From the NCBI GenBank assembly GCA_965237525.1, contig CBDEFO010000004.1:32001-96000 (forward strand): 64,000 nucleotides of DNA, given 5' to 3'. The DNA comes from Candidatus Latescibacterota bacterium (lineage in GTDB: Bacteria; Latescibacterota; CBDEFO01). The notes beneath the pieces were generated by a model, which was not told the DNA's origin, did no database searches, and saw only the letters and a list, made by a program, of their open reading frames with translations. The position numbers and the translations under genes were made by a program. Every line of letters begins with the position of its first letter. Within the stretch, counting starts at the first letter, position 1. This document shows positions 26,611 through 35,013 of this stretch, in pieces.

Positions 26611-27077
26611 GTCACCATGGGATCACCAGCCAGACACGGGCTCGCAATCGCCGAAACCGCCAAGCGTGTGTCGTTGACATCTGGGTTCTGGATGGTGCTG
26701 GCTCTTGCACGACGTGCGAACCTCCGGTGAGTACGTTCCAGCCGGGATTTCCATTTTGGCCGTCCAGGTCGGCACTGGTATACACCAAACGCCCTTCCGG
26801 ACCTAGGTGCCTCTGAGCCGTAGCCTTCAGGCGGCGCAACGGCGGCCGGGTGGGCTGGGGCCACGAGTGGTGCCCGATTCCCAGCCGGCTGCCCGGACCC
26901 TGTCCGAGTGGTCGCGCATCGAAGCCGTGCCGGTCGGCACCCTCACGCTGACCCTGGATGATTCGAGCACACGCCCCCTGGCAAGAGATCGGCCGTGCAT
27001 ATTTGTGTTTATTCATCGTTCGAGGGGTGATTATCTACTTGACTAACTTTCACCGAGGGACGTAATATATGAGCGGA

Positions 27078-28263
27078 TTAGGTGAGTTGGAGCTTGGCTT
27101 TCAGGTACTCCATGCCCCGGTCGCCCTTGATGCGGTTACAGGACCCACAGAGCAACTGGAGATTCTCCAAGTGATCGGTGCCGCCCTTTGCTCGGGAGAT
27201 GATGTGATCGACTTCCAGGTGTCGCGCCTCGAAGTGGGTATCGCACCCGGCGCAGTTTCCTCCCTGGCTGCCGTAGAGTGTCTGTCTGTGCGTTCGAGGG
27301 ACCGCGAGTGCGCCGATGTCCGTCCGGCGCAGAACGTCTTTTCTGTGGACGATCTCGCGCCACAGGCCCTGCCTGTCTTCGATACGGGATACGACCAACT
27401 CCGCAGCCCTGCTCGAGACGTCAATTCCGGTCCAATTTCTACCAAGGTCCTCGGCGGCCACGCATGTTGTGGCGCATCCACAGAACGGGTCCAGCACCAT
27501 ATCACCCTCGTTCGAGCTGGCGCGGATGATCCGCTTCAAGAGAGCTATGGGTTTCTGCGTTGGATAGCCGGTTTTCTCCGTCGAGAAACTCTTGATCATG
27601 ATCGAATCGAGCACATCTTCGGAATGACAATTCCACGTATCCTCAATAGGGATTCCCTTGCCGGTCGGCTTCTTCCCGTCGCGGCGTACATAGTCTTTCC
27701 GGTAAGGGATGTACTCTTTATTGAACCCTCCTATTGCTTTGTCGCTTTTCAGGTAGTAGAAGATCGTTTCATGGTTGCGAATCCATCCGAGTTTCTGAGT
27801 CTTGAACCCAGAGATCCACCCTATCCGCCAAACAATTTCATTGCGGAAGTTCTGGTGCCCGAAGACCGCATCCATGACGAGCTTAAGGTAATGGCTCATT
27901 GTGGGATCGCAGTGCAGATAGATCGAACCCGTAGGCTTGAGGAGCCGCTGTATCTCCAAGAGGCGTGCAGCCATGTAAACGAGATAGGACTTGTCGCTTG
28001 GGGTCACGGCAGCGAGCAGGACTCGGTACAACACCGGGTGCTTGGCTTCAATCAGGTTGGATCCACTCGACATCTACATCGGAGAGGGTCCACGTGTCCT
28101 TGAACGCCGCTCCGGCGGCCTTGGAGCCTATGGGAGCGGAATAGTCCGCTTTCGAGTTGAATGGAGGATCGAGGTAGATCAGGTCCACGGACTCGGAATT
28201 CATGCCCCGCATGACATAGAGGCAGTCGCCGGTCCAGATCGTCTTGGGCTCCCAGTTGATCAC
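27078..28263 (-). pseudogene. adenine DNA methyltransferase fused to C-terminal HNH nuclease, one frameshift near 28060
   Basis: IYLDPPF, YPTQKP, DPFCGCATT; CAGC...EVDHII...GGTDHLENLQLLCGSCN. Confidence 0.87.
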
Positions 28264-29150
28264 CTAGGCGACCAGCTGGGAGTATTTGAGCTTGCCCGGT
28301 GTCCATGATGCGACGGAGGGGGTATCGCGGAAGATGTGCGGGTTGTCACGGTTGTTGTACCGCCACTCAAGCTCTTCCAGGTAGCGGTCCATATGCTTGA
28401 CGCTCATCTTGTGGAACGTGCCGACGATGGAGCGCTTGAACAGGCTCCACACGCCCTCGATGCTGTTGGTGTGGACGTCGCCGATCACCCATTCCTCGGC
28501 GGAGTGATTCACGGTCTCATGGCGTGTGTCATCGTCACTGATCCCGATATAACTCTTGAGATCGTCGGTGTAGATTGCTTCCGCCTCGTCCTTCACGGTG
28601 CGCCGTACGAACTCATGGAGCGTGTCACGCCTCACGTTGGGGATGCGCTCGACGCGGACGCGGCCTCCGCGCTCGATGGCTCCGGCCACCCAGTACTTGT
28701 GTCGCGCCAGTTCTCACCCTTGCTCTTACCGCCGACCATCGTCTCGTCCACTTCTACGACTCCGACCAACGTAGGGCCAGAGAACGGATTGTTGCTCATT
28801 GCCTCTCGGATCCGGTGGCAGAGGAACCAAGCCGTTTTGTACGCGACCCCCAAGGTGCGCTTAAGCTGATTGGCGCTCATGCCCTTCTTGGACTCGCACA
28901 TGAGGTAGATGGCCAGGAACCACTTGCGGAGCGGCAGGTGCGATCCGTGCATAATGGTGCCGGTTGTCACGCTGAACCGATAGTCGCAGCCCCGGCAGCC
29001 CCACAGGTTGTATTCCCCGAGGTCGTGAATGTCCGTGTCACCGCACCGGATGCAGCAGACGCCTTCGGGCCAGCGCAGCGATTCCAGCAGGTTCCGGCAG
29101 GCTTCATCGTTGTTGTAGCGGTCGATCAACTTAATGAGGTTCATAGCCAT
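28264..29150 (-). pseudogene. IS1595 transposase A, frameshifted near 28700
   Basis: RWPEG, CxxC zinc ribbon, VEVDET, YTDD, VNHS, HTNSIEGVWS. Confidence 0.9.
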
Positions 29151-29328
29151 GACTCAGATTTCCAGGAAAAAGCGCAAGCTGCCTAAGAACGTGACGGAAC
29201 TTCCCGACCACGAGCTTATGGAGTGGTTGTTCGGCAAGCGCGTTATGAAGGAGATGGACGCGATTGTAGCCGAGCGGTCAGAGCCGGAAGTTGTAGCGTC
29301 CCAATACGATACGATGTCCATAGACTAA
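29149..29328 (+). CDS. small basic protein divergent from transposase A (59 aa)
   Basis: MTQISRKKRKLPKNVTELPDHELMEWLFGKRVMKEMD; homologous ORF at the same position in element B. Confidence 0.65.
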   Translation: MTQISRKKRKLPKNVTELPDHELMEWLFGKRVMKEMDAIVAERSEPEVVASQYDTMSID

Positions 29329-29371
29329 ATATAAGGACTTGGGCACCGTTAGTCAAGTAGATAATCACCCC

Positions 29372-29509
29372 TGCTTCCAGTGAGATCAGATCCAATCCCA
29401 GAGTGAAACAAGCCACTCAAGCTCTCGCAACCATCTCGAAACCCGCACGAGATTCCGCATCCAGCCACACTACATCCCCTCTTATTCTTTGTCAAGTGCA
29501 TAATTACCC
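29372..29509 (+). mobile_element. orphan right end of IS1595 element B
   Basis: near-identical to 34868-35005 including the TIR. Confidence 0.9.
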
Positions 29510-29760
29510 ATCATTCTCCTCTGCCTTCGCTGGTATTTTCGCTTCAAACTGAGTTATCGAGATCTGGCCGCGATTTTAGGCGAGCGGGGTTTATCGATTT
29601 CGCACTCCACGATTTTGCGTTGGGTGGTTCGCTATGCGGACACGTGTGAAAAGCGCTGGTACTGATTCGAGCACCCGGTGGGTGGGAGCTGGCGGGTGGA
29701 TGAAACGTTTACCAAGGTGCGGGGCCAGTTGATGTATCTGTACCGCGCAGTGGATGGACG
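29510..29760 (+). pseudogene. IS6-family transposase remnant
   Basis: IILLCLRWYFRFKLSYRDL...HSTILRWV...GSWRVDETFTKVRGQLMYLYRAVD with an internal stop. Confidence 0.85.
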
Positions 29761-29813: not shown

Positions 29814-32735
29814 TCAGATGTTCTGCGTGCAGTCGCAGACTGGCCAATTTGAACAACCCAGGAACGGTCCGTGCTTTCCGCTTTTCGCTTGGAGCCATCC
29901 GTTGTCGCATTTCGGACATCCCTGGACGGACCGGCCACAGTCGGGGCAATGGAAACTACCGTTGGCCTTGGCCAGCAGTCCCGTGCCGCAGTGGGGACAG
30001 GCGGACTGTGTGTACTCGCAGTACGGATAGTGCGAGCAGCCGTAGAACGTGCCCCGGTCCCGAGCCTTTTCTCTACGCTCAAGGCGTCCGTGTATGCATT
30101 CGGGGCAGGGGACTTCCCTTCCCGGCAGCCGACCGAAAACGGTGACACCATAGCCGTCCTTTATTAACTCCATGACGAATGAGGAAGGCCACCTGCCGTC
30201 CGCCAAGGGAAAGACGCGACGCTTGGCGCGGGTGATGGCGACATAGAGCAGGCGCCGCTCTTCCGCGTTCGGATGCCCTTCGGGCGCCGCGAGGACGAGA
30301 TCAAGCAGCGGGTCATCGGCGATCTCGGCGGGGAAGCCATATTTTCCGGAGCACAGGCCGAGCACTACAGCGTAATCGGCTTCGAGCCCTTTTGAACCGT
30401 GCACGGTCATGTACGAGAGCCGTAGATTGGGATGTTCCCTCTCCAGCTCGACCATGTTCTCCGGCTTCAAGTGGTTGTACCGGCCCAGCAGCAAGACAGT
30501 GGACGTTCCGTCGTTCGTAGCCGCGTCAGCGCCGATTGCTTTCAGTGCCTCCCTCAAAAGACCGGGGTATTCCTCTCCGGGAAGGCCAACATGCACACAA
30601 GGCCCATCCGTCTGGTGTATGGAGGAGACATTCTTGCGAATCTGCGTGGGGTTGCTGAGGACGAATTTAGTTGAAACGGCGGCGATGCTGTCGGCACACC
30701 GGAATGTCGTCTCCAGGTTGATGTGCTCGCTCTCGCCGAAGCGCTCCCGGAACTCTCGCATGATCGCGATGTCCGAGCCGGTAAATCGGTAGATTGCCTG
30801 CCAATCGTCACCGACGGCGAACAGTTGGGCGGTCTTGGACGTGTCCAGCAACGCCTTCAGCAGTCGTGCTCTCCCTGGCGAGATGTCCTGAAACTCGTCG
30901 ACTAGGATGTATCCGAACGGGGAGCTGTAGCGTCCGCTCTCCACGTGTTCCGTAGCTTTGCTAATCATGTCGTGAAAGTCGATCCGCCCCAGTCGGGTGA
31001 GTGCTTCCTGGTAGCGCTCGAAGATCGGCTGGAATACGGTAACGAACGCCTCCGCTCGCGGGCGGTTGGGAGCTTTCGCGGCCCGTCGGGCTACGTCATG
31101 GACGGAGAGCTGAGCCCCTTTGTAGTGCTGAAGGAAGGTCGCAACCAAACGGGTGAACGAATCCCTTTGACCTTGCTGTTGTAGGAGGGCAAGGATGTCC
31201 TCACGCGATAGCGGAGATAGCGTCACGTCATGGTCAGCCAATTTCGTGGCCAAGTTCTCGGTCAACTTGTCGACGGCCTTTTCGTGGCTGAAGGTTTCAA
31301 TAAGGACGGTGCCATGTTCAGCATGGAGCCGCCGCTTCCAGTCCATCGACTTGAGATACTTCTCGCGGTCTATGAATGGAGGCGTATTGCCCGAAGCAGA
31401 GAGTGCGAAATGTTCGATGTAAATCCCGGCGTCTAGCAGGTAGAAGTCGGGCTCGTATTGCCGTTTCTCGGGCGTGGCCGTTTCGTGCTCGTAGAAGCGT
31501 TCGTATTCGTAGCGCACACCGGCCAGGTAGAGAAAGTTGGCGATTTCGCATTCCTCGAAGCTCTTGAGCTTCTCGCCTTTTAACGAGCGGATCTCGTTTT
31601 TCTGCATGTAGTCCCAGTACTCGCCTTGGGTTCGAAAGTCGTGCTCTCTTTGGTAAGGAGCAAAGTACTCCTGGAAGTACGTCTGCATCACCTTGGAGAA
31701 TTGCGGGTCGACGATCAGGTCGTCGATGATGCGCTTTAGGAGGTCGATCAGGGCCTTGTGGTCCTCGGCTACCTTGGCTAGTGCCGGGCGCTTGCCCTCC
31801 GCTTCGCCGATGATGGACATACCCAAGCTGTGAAAAGTTCGAACGGTGAGATGGCTCCCCGTCTCATCGCCAAGGCGGCTGCGGACCCTCTTCTCCATCT
31901 CCCTCTGGGCGTCTTTCGCGAATGCCAGCAGCAGCAGTTCTGGCGGACGTCGATAACGTTTGCGGATCAGCCAGCCAGCCTTGGCCACGATCACGGAGGT
32001 TTTTCCGCTGCCTGCGGCGGCGACGACCAGGTTGCGGTCCTCGTCGATGACCACCGCTCTTCGTTGCTCTTCGGTGAGCGGTCTTACCTCGATCCTGTCG
32101 AAGAAATCCCTTGATCGGACCAGCTCGTTGACCACAAAGGTGTCGTTGGCTTGCGCCCGCCACACTGTGGAGTCTCTCAAGAAGTTCTGTATGGTCTTCA
32201 ACATTCGGATTTCTGAGGTGCCAGCCAGCTTGTCGGGCCATCGAGAGGGGAACGGGGCTATCCCGTCCTTAGCGTCACGTTCGAGGTCGGAAAAGACGCT
32301 GCGGGTCATGTACCTGGGTGGGTCCGCAAGCCGAGCCAAGCGATTGTCGACGGAACGGAGTGTCCCGACGTGTGTAGCCAGCGTTCTTCGCCACCAGCCG
32401 ACCCTTGCTCTTTCCAGTGCGTCGGCGAACGCCTGTGTGTCGAGCCGCGACAGCCCCGATACCGCGACTTCCCCGGAGGCGACACGGATTCGCATGCCGC
32501 TCCAGAACCACCCGGTAGCTATCTCGGACGTCTCGATCTCCCGAAAGGGGATTTTCACCGATCCGAACGTGCGCGTCAGGGTCAAGTTGTCTGCACTCAC
32601 CGTGGCGGCCTTGGCGTCTCTTGGATGAAGGAATGCGAACATGAACGATGCCAACCCGGCCCGTTCGACATGCAGCGGGCTCCCAGAAGTCAAATTGCGT
32701 AAGCGCGGTTGGGGTACGGACCGTTTTTCCTTCAT
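29814..32735 (-). CDS. DNA helicase IV-like UvrD/SF1 helicase with nuclease-like insert and C-terminal topoisomerase-type zinc ribbons
   Basis: AAAGSGKT, LVDEFQD, VGDDWQAIY, TVHGSKGLE, EERRLLYVAITRA; YEPDFYL..IYIEHF; several CxxC, FYGCS and FLGCS. Confidence 0.85.
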   Translation of the reverse strand: MKEKRSVPQPRLRNLTSGSPLHVERAGLASFMFAFLHPRDAKAATVSADNLTLTRTFGSVKIPFREIETSEIATGWFWSGMRIRVASGEVAVSGLSRLDTQAFADALERARVGWWRRTLATHVGTLRSVDNRLARLADPPRYMTRSVFSDLERDAKDGIAPFPSRWPDKLAGTSEIRMLKTIQNFLRDSTVWRAQANDTFVVNELVRSRDFFDRIEVRPLTEEQRRAVVIDEDRNLVVAAAGSGKTSVIVAKAGWLIRKRYRRPPELLLLAFAKDAQREMEKRVRSRLGDETGSHLTVRTFHSLGMSIIGEAEGKRPALAKVAEDHKALIDLLKRIIDDLIVDPQFSKVMQTYFQEYFAPYQREHDFRTQGEYWDYMQKNEIRSLKGEKLKSFEECEIANFLYLAGVRYEYERFYEHETATPEKRQYEPDFYLLDAGIYIEHFALSASGNTPPFIDREKYLKSMDWKRRLHAEHGTVLIETFSHEKAVDKLTENLATKLADHDVTLSPLSREDILALLQQQGQRDSFTRLVATFLQHYKGAQLSVHDVARRAAKAPNRPRAEAFVTVFQPIFERYQEALTRLGRIDFHDMISKATEHVESGRYSSPFGYILVDEFQDISPGRARLLKALLDTSKTAQLFAVGDDWQAIYRFTGSDIAIMREFRERFGESEHINLETTFRCADSIAAVSTKFVLSNPTQIRKNVSSIHQTDGPCVHVGLPGEEYPGLLREALKAIGADAATNDGTSTVLLLGRYNHLKPENMVELEREHPNLRLSYMTVHGSKGLEADYAVVLGLCSGKYGFPAEIADDPLLDLVLAAPEGHPNAEERRLLYVAITRAKRRVFPLADGRWPSSFVMELIKDGYGVTVFGRLPGREVPCPECIHGRLERREKARDRGTFYGCSHYPYCEYTQSACPHCGTGLLAKANGSFHCPDCGRSVQGCPKCDNGWLQAKSGKHGPFLGCSNWPVCDCTQNI

Positions 32736-32884
32736 TCGAAATTCCTCAAATCAAATCCCTCCAAGCCGCGTTCTCGAATGGTCCAGAATGAGTCAACCCA
32801 CAGTCTTACAATGATTTCCAACGTGCTCCTCGGCCGCGACCCGTCGATTTGGTAATTATGCACTTGACAAAGCTAAGACATCTG

Positions 32885-33063
32885 TTATAGACTTGTAGGC
32901 ATGGAAACATCGGTATCATCCTTCGAGTCGCCGGTGAGCTTGTCAAGTTCTCCATCACCTTGTCCCCGAATAGGGTTCGCATCAGGTGCCGGTCGCCTCG
33001 GGAGAGCGCATCATCCGGCAGTTTGCGTTTACGCCGCTTCTTTGGAGAGGAGTTCTGAACCAT
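32885..33063 (-). pseudogene. small basic protein divergent from transposase B, probable frameshift near 32948
   Basis: MVQNSSPKKRRKRKLPDDALSRGDRHLMRTLFGDKVME, continuing ELDKLTGD...TSL* in a shifted frame. Confidence 0.55.
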
Positions 33064-33893
33064 GATGAACCTCATTGCTTTAATGGAAAAGTTTAAGGAC
33101 GATGAAGATTGCCGAGAGGCCCTGGAAAAACTTCGCTGGCCTAACGGAGTGGCCTGCACCCGCTGCGGAGACATGGAAGTGCTCGAACTTCCCAAACAAA
33201 AGCGATGGGAGTGCAGGGGATGCGGATACCAATTCTCCGTGACCTCTGGCACCATCATGCACGATTCCCACCTGCCCCTCCGCAAGTGGTTCATCGCCAT
33301 CTACCTCATGTGCGTCTCTAAGAAAGGCATCTCTGCCATCGCATCAGAGAGGCCATGGGCAACGATCCCTTTGAAGGGCCGACTCTGTTTGGCATCGTCG
33401 AAGTGGACGAAACCCTGGTCGGTGGAAAAAAACGAAACATCGGATCGGGAAGCAGAGAAGGTAAGACGTCGGTGGCCGGGGCCATACAGCGTGGAGGCCA
33501 GGTCAGAATTGAGCGCGTACCAAACATCCGAAAGGAAACCTTCCACAGCTTCATCAAGCGGAACATCAAGGACGAAGCCGAGGCCATCTACACCGATGAC
33601 CTCAAGTCCTACCTGGGCATCGGAGACGCTGATACTCGACATGAGACTGTCATCACTCCGAGGAGGAGTGGGTTGTCGGTGACGTTCACACCAACTCTAT
33701 CGAAGGGGTCTGGAGCCTGTTCAAGCGCTCCATTATCGAAACCTTCCACAAGATGAGCGCGAAGCACCTGGATCGTTACCTGGAAGAACTGGAGTGGAGA
33801 CACAATAACCGTAACAACCCCAACATCTTCATTGATGCCCTTCGCAGGGTCATGACAACTGAAAATCTCACCTATCGGAAGCTGGTGGCTTAG
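33062..33893 (+). pseudogene. IS1595 transposase B, with deletion and frameshifts
   Basis: same motifs as transposase A spread over three frames. Confidence 0.9.
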
Positions 33894-33928
33894 TATCAGG
33901 GGAGGGATCTTTTCCCTCTTGATCTCCT

Positions 33929-34156
33929 TCATGATGGGGCTCCTCTAGTCCTCACTTCCCCTGCTCTCCTCAACCATGCCTTAACACACTGCCACTTGTC
34001 CCCGGAGTAACGGAAGTCCAGTGAGGGGTCGGCCTTCTCCGTCAAATAACTAAACAAGACAAGTGCATCTAAATCGGTTGGATTGTTGATTCCTTCCTCT
34101 GTCACCCAGCGATCCCACTTGGCTAGTATGAGGCGTTCGGCCTTGGCTTGTTTCAT
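33929..34156 (-). CDS. hypothetical passenger protein (75 aa)
   Basis: ORF inside element B. Confidence 0.5.
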   Translation of the reverse strand: MKQAKAERLILAKWDRWVTEEGINNPTDLDALVLFSYLTEKADPSLDFRYSGDKWQCVKAWLRRAGEVRTRGAPS

Positions 34157-34323
34157 TTTAGCTTGCTCATCATTGGCTACTCATAGTCAGGAACCAGTTT
34201 TACGGTGGAAACGCACCTTGTCTTTCCATTCAGGGGCCAAAGAATGCTGTGACAAAATCCATCCGTTCCTCGCTGTCTTCTGAGGGAGATTGTCTCCGGC
34301 CCAGATGGTCTGATTTAGCCCAA

Positions 34324-34956
34324 TTAGGGTTGCTCATCATCGGTATCGGTTTCAGGCCAGATCTGGTGCAGGTCTTCGCTTCGGACACGAAGTCCCCAGA
34401 ACATCTTTGAAGGTGGAGTCCGGGTTTCCGATGGAGAAAGGACGAAGGACACACCTTGTAAGGCGCTCGGATTTTTTGGAACATTGATTTCCCTTGGAAT
34501 TAGTCTCTGGCACTGAGGCGGCGAAACGATCTGTATGTCTCCTCCTCTACCAAGCCTGCCAACCACAGGTAGATCCCCGCTGCACATCTTCTTATGTAGC
34601 AGATCGAAAAAGTACCGACCCGAAACACCTGAAGATCTGAAACTGTGATTCACGTTCTCCCAAAAAAGTCGGAGTGCTTCTTTGATAGGCATGTCGTAAT
34701 TCTCAATCCTGGCTGCTTTCCTAAGCTCCCTTCTGTCTACCAGCAACATGGTCAACCCAAAAATAGTTACCGCACCACCCAGCAAACCCGGCCAGTGAGT
34801 TATCGTGAAGGTGAAAGCATCGGTGAAGTATTGCCATATAATCCCTATACCTCCAACAAATAACTCCTGCTTCCAGTGAGATCGGATCCAATCCCAGAGT
34901 GAAACAAGCCACTCAAGCTCTCGCAACCATCTCGAAACCCGCACGAGATTCCGCAT
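34324..34956 (-). CDS. hypothetical membrane-anchored passenger protein
   Basis: N-terminal hydrophobic helices; follows a TIR-embedded promoter. Confidence 0.55.
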   Translation of the reverse strand: MRNLVRVSRWLRELEWLVSLWDWIRSHWKQELFVGGIGIIWQYFTDAFTFTITHWPGLLGGAVTIFGLTMLLVDRRELRKAARIENYDMPIKEALRLFWENVNHSFRSSGVSGRYFFDLLHKKMCSGDLPVVGRLGRGGDIQIVSPPQCQRLIPREINVPKNPSALQGVSFVLSPSETRTPPSKMFWGLRVRSEDLHQIWPETDTDDEQP

Positions 34957-35013
34957 CCGGCCACACTACATCCCCTCTTATTCTTTGTCAAGTGCATAAT
35001 TACCCAAAGATCT

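Follow-up and report, generated by a model that had tools for sequence, protein, structure and literature searches.

The self-regulation of IS elements, either by an antisense unit or by a small element-encoded protein, is of a known kind. In IS10/Tn10, the short non-coding antisense RNA-OUT controls RNA-IN through an overlap of about 35 nt. In IS1, the small basic repressor InsA binds the inverted repeats that hold the transposase promoter; it corresponds to the N-terminal zinc-finger/HTH portion of the transposase reading frame and is encoded on the same strand. The IS1 family is said to be related to IS1595, the family of the elements that we examine here. The ISNwi1 subgroup (ISfinder) has ends of the form ggnnatTAT, and its members measure 1080-1200 bp without passenger genes and 1750-4750 bp with them. 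In IS200, the art200 sRNA is encoded opposite the 5' UTR of tnpA and base-pairs with tnpA, as the abstract of PMC4513863 states. Finally, the part of PMC8101967 that describes the IS1595 family (citing Siguier et al. 2009) credits these elements with "a single transposase gene", 8-bp target duplications and a terminal GG.

In this work, we examine two IS1595-family elements, A and B, found in the window, a stretch of 64,000 nt from a Candidatus Latescibacterota bacterium (contig CBDEFO010000004.1, positions 32,001 to 96,000). An earlier note, made from these letters alone, had proposed that a small ORF divergent from the transposase and antisense to its leader is a conserved accessory-protein gene, and this is strongly supported by the comparative evidence that we detail below. 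These elements resemble the IS1595 family, as PMC8101967 describes it, by their Zn-ribbon and DDE_Tnp_IS1595 domains, by their GGnnATTAT... ends and, in relatives, by the 8-bp duplications. However, they are not single-gene IS: their clade, which covers at least eight phyla and hundreds of clusters, carries a second conserved core gene, and the long left end that passes as non-coding in annotations is this gene.

How does this gene compare to the described systems? As in IS10, the 5' end of the transposase mRNA, with its ribosome site and start codon, would have its complement in an outward transcript, and the transposase promoter lies near the end of the element. Unlike RNA-OUT, the antisense unit is here a conserved protein-coding one, and it covers the whole leader of about 170 nt. 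The likeness to InsA, a regulator of the sort that we propose here to work in trans, is that of a small basic protein encoded by the element, with the promoter located in the left inverted repeat, but the gene is here divergent and antisense, and its product has neither a zinc finger nor a recognised HTH, and no sequence similarity to InsA. The elements carry variable passenger genes, as ISNwi1 elements do, and their ends (GGTAATTAT / GGGGTGATTAT) and lengths (1155-4012 bp) fit the description of this subgroup given above. As for art200, it is likewise encoded opposite the transposase 5' UTR, but it is a non-coding Hfq-binding sRNA from which no protein is produced, in another IS family with another type of transposase.

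The earlier note knew no description of such a layout, and our searches agree with it: no small ORF or antisense control was found described among the IS1595 and ISNwi1 publications listed, and none of the publications on IS1595 with antisense, judged by their titles, deals with such control; an earlier mention of the ORF may exist in Siguier et al. 2009, ISfinder or TnPedia. What we rate as new is the predicted combination of both kinds of self-regulation, together with an unnamed family of small proteins. The layout itself is unusual, with a protein-coding gene antisense to the entire transposase leader, interlocked starts, and a stop that sits on the transposase promoter.

Two decayed elements in the window

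The region of interest consists of two diverged, dead IS1595-family elements with passenger genes (Table 1). The Zn-ribbon family PF12760 is matched at E 5e-9 in A and 5.5e-14 in B, and PF12762 (DDE_Tnp_IS1595) at E 5e-31 in A; both transposases are frameshifted. In A, the Zn-ribbon part lies at 28632-29150 and the DDE part at 28264-28689, and in B the transposase shows a 55-column gap relative to A and at least two frame changes. The inverted repeat of A is AGGGGTGATTATCTACTTGACTAAC with its complement, and the repeats start with GG in both elements. No matching flanks were found around A or B when 8-bp target duplications were looked for; such duplications are found in the related 1681-bp element that is described below. 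The passenger gene of A is frameshifted as well and split into two ORFs (27078-28073 and 28048-28263).

Table 1. Features of elements A and B and of their immediate surroundings in the window
Feature	Position	Strand	Remarks
Element A	27023-29372		Bounded by perfect 25-nt inverted repeats
Right inverted repeat of A	27023-27047		25 nt, perfect complement of 29348-29372
Passenger gene of A	27078-28263	-	N6/N4 DNA methylase fused to HNH endonuclease
IS1595-family transposase of A	28264-29150	-	Frameshift near 28690
Shine-Dalgarno-like GAGG	29136-29139	+	9 nt before the ATG of small ORF A, inside Asn-Leu codons of the transposase
Small ORF A	29149-29328	+	59 aa, intact; basic N-terminal tail, helix 20-44
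Predicted transposase promoter of A	29328-29356	-	TTGACT-17-TATATT
Left inverted repeat of A	29348-29372
Solo end fragment of a B-type element	29363-29510		148 nt, abuts A; 97% identical to 34859-35006
Small ORF B	32806-33063	-	Decayed; family-like part roughly 32950-33063
Element B	32848-35007		25-nt inverted repeats, 96% complementary
Left inverted repeat of B	32848-32872
Predicted transposase promoter of B	32864-32893	+	TTGACA-18-TAGACT; alternative TATAGA, spacer 16
IS1595-family transposase of B	33062-33893	+	Broken
Passenger ORFs of B	33929-34956	-	75 aa and 210 aa, without Pfam family
Right inverted repeat of B	34983-35007

In both elements, the first in-frame ATG of the transposase and the ATG of the divergent small ORF share a single CATG, and the coordinates given for this in the earlier note are confirmed. 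In A this CATG lies at 29148-29151 (transposase on the minus strand, from 29150) and in B at 33061-33064 (transposase on the plus strand, from 33062). Small ORF A also has an in-frame ATG upstream, at 29134, which would give a protein of 64 aa. The two peptides align as had been claimed, with 16 identities over 38 aa (42%, pairwise E 1e-8), and the DNA under the two small ORFs is only 48% identical, against 71-73% in the transposase genes. Four predicted proteins from the databases resemble small ORF A, at 93, 73, 71 and 93% identity, and none of them is named.

It had also been claimed that each small ORF ends at the -10 box of the transposase promoter. This stands for A, whose TAA (29326-29328) overlaps the -10 hexamer TATATT (29333-29328) by one base, within the only sigma-70-like site of the element A region, the -35 of which lies in the left inverted repeat. 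It does not stand for B as it is: this ORF reads through the inverted repeat to 32806, and a stop inside the -10 region (32885-32887) is found only in another frame. The peptide of B departs from the family alignment after about residue 40 and reaches the -10 only after a change of frame, so that B is to be seen as a decayed copy and A as the intact one, which fits the frameshift that had been thought probable in B.

Elements A and B lie within a cluster of IS remnants. One more of these is probably the interrupted short frame at 29540-29760 (plus strand), which reads LSISHSTILRWVVRYADTCEKRW, a stop, and then VDETFTKVRGQLMYLYRAVD and, judged by eye, resembles part of an IS6-type transposase. 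Between A and B, an ORF of 973 aa (29814-32735, minus strand) carries a GSGKT Walker-A motif and Cys-rich C-terminal repeats; by eye, it resembles a helicase of the UvrD/Rep type that carries zinc-ribbon repeats. Elsewhere, a DNA methylase passenger related to that of A (for which an HNH nuclease is also noted) is found in the Gammaproteobacteria locus L007; these passengers would be IS-borne orphan methylases/nucleases. In the genome to which the window belongs, the small ORF is found in A and B only. The same genome carries, on contigs C3, C4, C7 and C8, about 12 full-length IS1595-family transposases of other subgroups, and the small basic ORF is absent from all eight that were examined, three of which have a repeat core of the family type at 55-107 nt from the transposase match.

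A small gene conserved as a protein

Related loci were fetched by the transposase N-terminus, with one genome per species, which gave 80 loci at 44-82% identity and, with A and B, 82 sources. A jackhmmer search was started from the A peptide against all the antisense stop-to-stop peptides found up to 1 kb upstream of the transposases, and it matched the peptide in 57 of these 82 sources, which belong to at least eight phyla; every match lies upstream of the transposase, on the opposite strand. The layout shared by A and B is more than a matter of chance, since the same peptide recurs in so many related sources. The 25 sources in which the jackhmmer profile found no match are L010, L042, L043, L050, L055, L062-L070 and L072-L082. 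Four of them (L042, L043, L050 and L055), which are nested among ORF-bearing elements, carry at the same antisense position a basic peptide of 39-47 aa with the pattern MKAPRK...PL..VPLRKLV..., to which the profile has no match, and which is probably either a very diverged member of the family or a replacement. On a 60-row transposase tree (quick IQ-TREE), the presence of the ORF needs two changes, when shuffling gives a mean of 17.7 and none of 500 shuffles is as low; the ORF-bearing sources form one part of the tree.

Judged on comparative sequence data, the small ORF is a real gene that is conserved as a protein, and the support comes from conservation at the amino-acid level and a periodicity by codon position, from dN/dS values that are low between close relatives, from Shine-Dalgarno sites, from a linkage that holds in both directions, and from the retention of the ORF across one transposase clade. 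The differences by codon position over 11 pairs number 93/77/172, so that third positions vary most. The dN/dS values of the five closest pairs are 0.29, 0.22, 0.00, 0.12 and 0.26; the median is 0.63 over 338 pairs, most pairwise values being saturated and uninformative. Any one of the other five frames is open across the span of the ORF in just 3-16 of the 43 loci (the loci were selected for the small ORF's own frame being open, and its count is no evidence). In many loci, an AGGAG or GGAGG is found 5-9 nt before the ATG of the small ORF.

These data bear on the reading in which only the antisense RNA matters and the open frame is a by-product, the peptide having no function. Non-coding antisense RNAs directed against the 5' end of a transposase mRNA are known in IS10. 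The same is reported for IS200 in the abstract of PMC4513863, and the small protein has no protein-family match, which would suit such a reading. However, the amino-acid pattern has been conserved between genes whose DNA is only 48% identical; the excess of third-position differences, the close-pair dN/dS of 0-0.29, the good Shine-Dalgarno sites and a frame that is open in nearly all the intact elements, unlike the five others, all speak for a translated product, and we consider an RNA-only role very improbable.

Among 1.84 billion representative proteins, a search with the family profile retrieved 523 cluster representatives at E<=1e-3, 19 of them at E<=1e-10, and nearly all of the best 150 of these 523 matches are stand-alone proteins of 42-72 aa. 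In three longer proteins, P0020 (489 aa), P0060 (317 aa) and P0034 (165 aa), the small-protein domain stands at the C-terminal end, and one of the three has a weak MalT-like TPR match; these long proteins may have arisen by fusion to a passenger that lies upstream, or be run-ons of the gene calls. A reciprocal metagenome scan, seeded with the small protein alone (8-row alignment), led to 17 loci, and 15 of them have, directly upstream, a divergent IS1595 transposase that is 64-75% identical to that of L016. In the two others (L097 and L099), the contigs are too short to show the transposase; a passenger ORF precedes the small ORF on its strand, and a sequence resembling the inverted repeat follows just downstream. 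A tblastn search of the peptide against 72,556 plasmids gave no match, and the nearest transposases on plasmids reach no more than 43% identity.

Anatomy of the leader

In most of the ORF-bearing loci, the distance from the inverted-repeat core ATTATnnACTTGAC to the transposase downstream is 173-267 nt, and more where an insert is present, but it is only 44-116 nt in the loci without small ORF. The extra length of the ORF-bearing leaders is thus the gene itself, which fills the approximately 170 nt between the IRL promoter (TTGAC-17-TAnnnT) and the transposase start. A TTGAC-(16-18)-TAnnnT site was found in 38 of 42 loci, by a scan that took the best of three spacers and for which the chance expectation is about 5%.

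The interlocked layout described in the earlier note is real, but it is less uniform than was claimed. At the distal end of the gene, the stop overlaps the -10 hexamer in 19 of 42 loci, lies exactly 17 nt after TTGAC in 15, and is found up to 30 nt downstream of the -10 in 14. At the proximal end, the CATG is shared with the transposase ATG in 21 of 45 distinct ORFs; 14 others start at 0-27 nt from this ATG, one starts at 39 nt, and one overlaps the transposase by more than the CATG. The last eight start 244-546 nt away, across a variable insert and still beside the repeat, and thus the overlap of the start codons is not essential.

When the CATG is shared, the Shine-Dalgarno sequence of the transposase (GGGAG) is often found in codons 4-5 of the small ORF, and that of the small ORF (GAGG) in Asn-Leu codons of the transposase. 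Such motifs are present at 14 of 27 CATG-type starts for the transposase and at 16 of 27 for the small ORF; in about half of the loci of this class, each gene has its ribosome-binding site in the first codons of the other. The conserved first five codons of the small ORF (MAQTP) may be held by the ribosome site of the transposase rather than by the function of the protein.

This overlap of the first codons with the transposase ribosome site, together with a GC-rich region that favours chance ORFs, could suggest that the conservation reflects a constraint on the transposase leader, such as RNA structure or binding sites, and that the ORF is an artefact of gene finding. Yet the leader does not fold better than its shuffles (z 0.13), and its single Rfam match reaches 13 bits, where the gathering score is 53.5, so that a structured RNA was not retained. 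The periodicity is found in the antisense frame while few sense frames are open, and a profile built on the peptide finds the family across phyla. With this, an artefact is hardly credible.

As for the expression of the small gene, IS10-type antisense control relies on an outward promoter inside the element; a scan of the 260 nt upstream of the small gene for a sigma-70-like promoter was negative in 39 of 45 loci, the window among them, and the matches to the sigma-70 pattern in the six other loci are at scattered positions. A metatranscriptome run (X20, with 0.04 of the sampled words) gave contigs on the conserved parts of the transposase only, at less than 95% likeness, and none over 29026-29457; these contigs come from a mixed community and prove nothing on expression either way.

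The small protein

The family members are 39-67 codons long. They share a Lys/Arg-rich start, the pattern (E/D)(L/M)(T/P)(D/T)xE(L/A)(M/A)xx(L/I/V)F(G/P)K, an amphipathic stretch, and a variable and often basic tail. The median pI of the family is 10.3 and the median net charge is +8; the protein of element A is atypical in being acidic (pI 5.8), and this is due to its tail. AF2 models made with the family alignment give, for protein A, a disordered basic tail and one helix (pLDDT 72) and, for the L016 member, two helices, 20-28 and 30-50, between which a conserved Gly/Pro position (Gly29) makes a kink (pLDDT 75).

The protein has no Pfam match below E 0.03 and none in NCBIfam, its best match in a PDB sequence profile search is at E 0.31, and Foldseek returns nothing from the PDB at E<=10. 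In the ESM Atlas, it finds only clusters of "hypothetical protein", at 0.84. The known small DNA-binding folds that were considered (RHH, HTH, excisionase) gave neither a profile match nor a fold match.

A predicted brake on transposase synthesis

We consider it more probable than not that this gene of 39-67 codons, encoding a basic helical protein and conserved head-to-head with the transposase and antisense to its whole leader as part of the core of an IS1595 clade, is a brake on the transposase. Transcribed outward from inside the transposase gene, its mRNA would be fully complementary to the transposase leader, ribosome site and start codon, over about 180 nt that comprise both ribosome sites, and the pairing of the two mRNAs would block the translation of the transposase. 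Moreover, convergent transcription across the -10/-35 boxes and the inverted repeat would interfere with the transcription of the transposase and with the use of this end. We propose the resulting decrease of transposase synthesis by analogy with IS10 RNA-OUT and IS200 art200; the mutual antisense control and the regulatory role that the earlier note had attributed to the small gene remain, in this sense, predictions.

With its Lys/Arg tail and its helix-kink-helix, the protein would be a trans-acting factor that most likely binds either nucleic acid (DNA of the inverted repeat and promoter, or RNA of the leader) or the transposase. A protein acting in trans would confer a copy-number-dependent damping. 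The full scheme, in which a single outward transcript silences the transposase by pairing with its whole leader and also encodes the small basic protein acting in trans, would provide a sizeable and so far overlooked clade of two-gene IS1595 elements with a two-layer, copy-number-sensing brake, a possibility that we regard as tentative and rather doubtful. If true, it would be a new way for an IS to limit its own activity, in which a single transcript combines antisense RNA with the message for a small protein, and if the control is real, it would give a name to a family of small proteins that is now annotated only as hypothetical.

A core gene of the mobile unit and its passengers

The small gene travels inside the mobile unit. 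One Xanthomonadales genome contains at least ten copies of a 1681-bp element with common ends (GGTAATTATGCCCTTGAC), which carries the small ORF, a transposase of 297 aa and a passenger of 170 aa. Of the ten fetched copies (L016-L021, L024, L028, L034 and L048, inserted in AT-rich 8-bp targets), six have perfect 8-bp target duplications. In L024 and L034 the flanks are swapped, one's left flank being identical to the other's right flank, a sign of recombination between two copies. The 52 elements that could be delimited range from 1155 to 4012 bp, and the minimal forms, L009 (1155 bp) and L038 (1297 bp), retain the small ORF. With passengers that differ from locus to locus and a small ORF that is present in 57 of 82 sources, these elements depart from the single-gene description of the family.

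Such a retention in every intact element of the clade, from the element with at least ten copies to the minimal 1155-bp forms, would also be expected if the small protein were a positive accessory factor, for instance a basic helper that bends DNA or binds the ends and assembles the transposase on the repeats. The protein is basic with a disordered tail, as are many architectural DNA binders, and its gene stays beside the inverted repeat even when it is apart from the transposase. However, the sister IS1595 clades transpose without the small ORF, with repeats located 44-116 nt from the transposase, no DNA-binding domain is recognised, and the antisense geometry reads more easily as inhibitory, so that we find a helper unlikely.

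The passengers raise another question, namely whether the gene has anything to do with the control of transposition, or is instead the last one of an outward unit that serves the host, the passengers, the maintenance of the element or the expression of flanking genes. In L097 and L099, a passenger ORF is found directly upstream on the same strand, and the passengers of L016 and of window element B are also on the strand of the small gene. No terminator-like site was found between the stop of ORF A and the end of element A, so that transcripts would run into the flanking DNA. But the passengers change between loci and the small gene does not, being present even in passenger-free elements, and its position over the transposase leader and promoter is conserved, which makes such an unrelated function quite improbable.

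In L003, L004, L005, L008, L012, L030, L052 and L039, mostly from Gemmatimonadota, the start of the small ORF and the ATG of the transposase are separated by 244-546 nt of variable sequence, which often carries an antisense ORF of its own starting at the CATG. L004 and L030, although closely related, differ in their inserts, and the head-to-head junction thus looks like a second site of passenger uptake.
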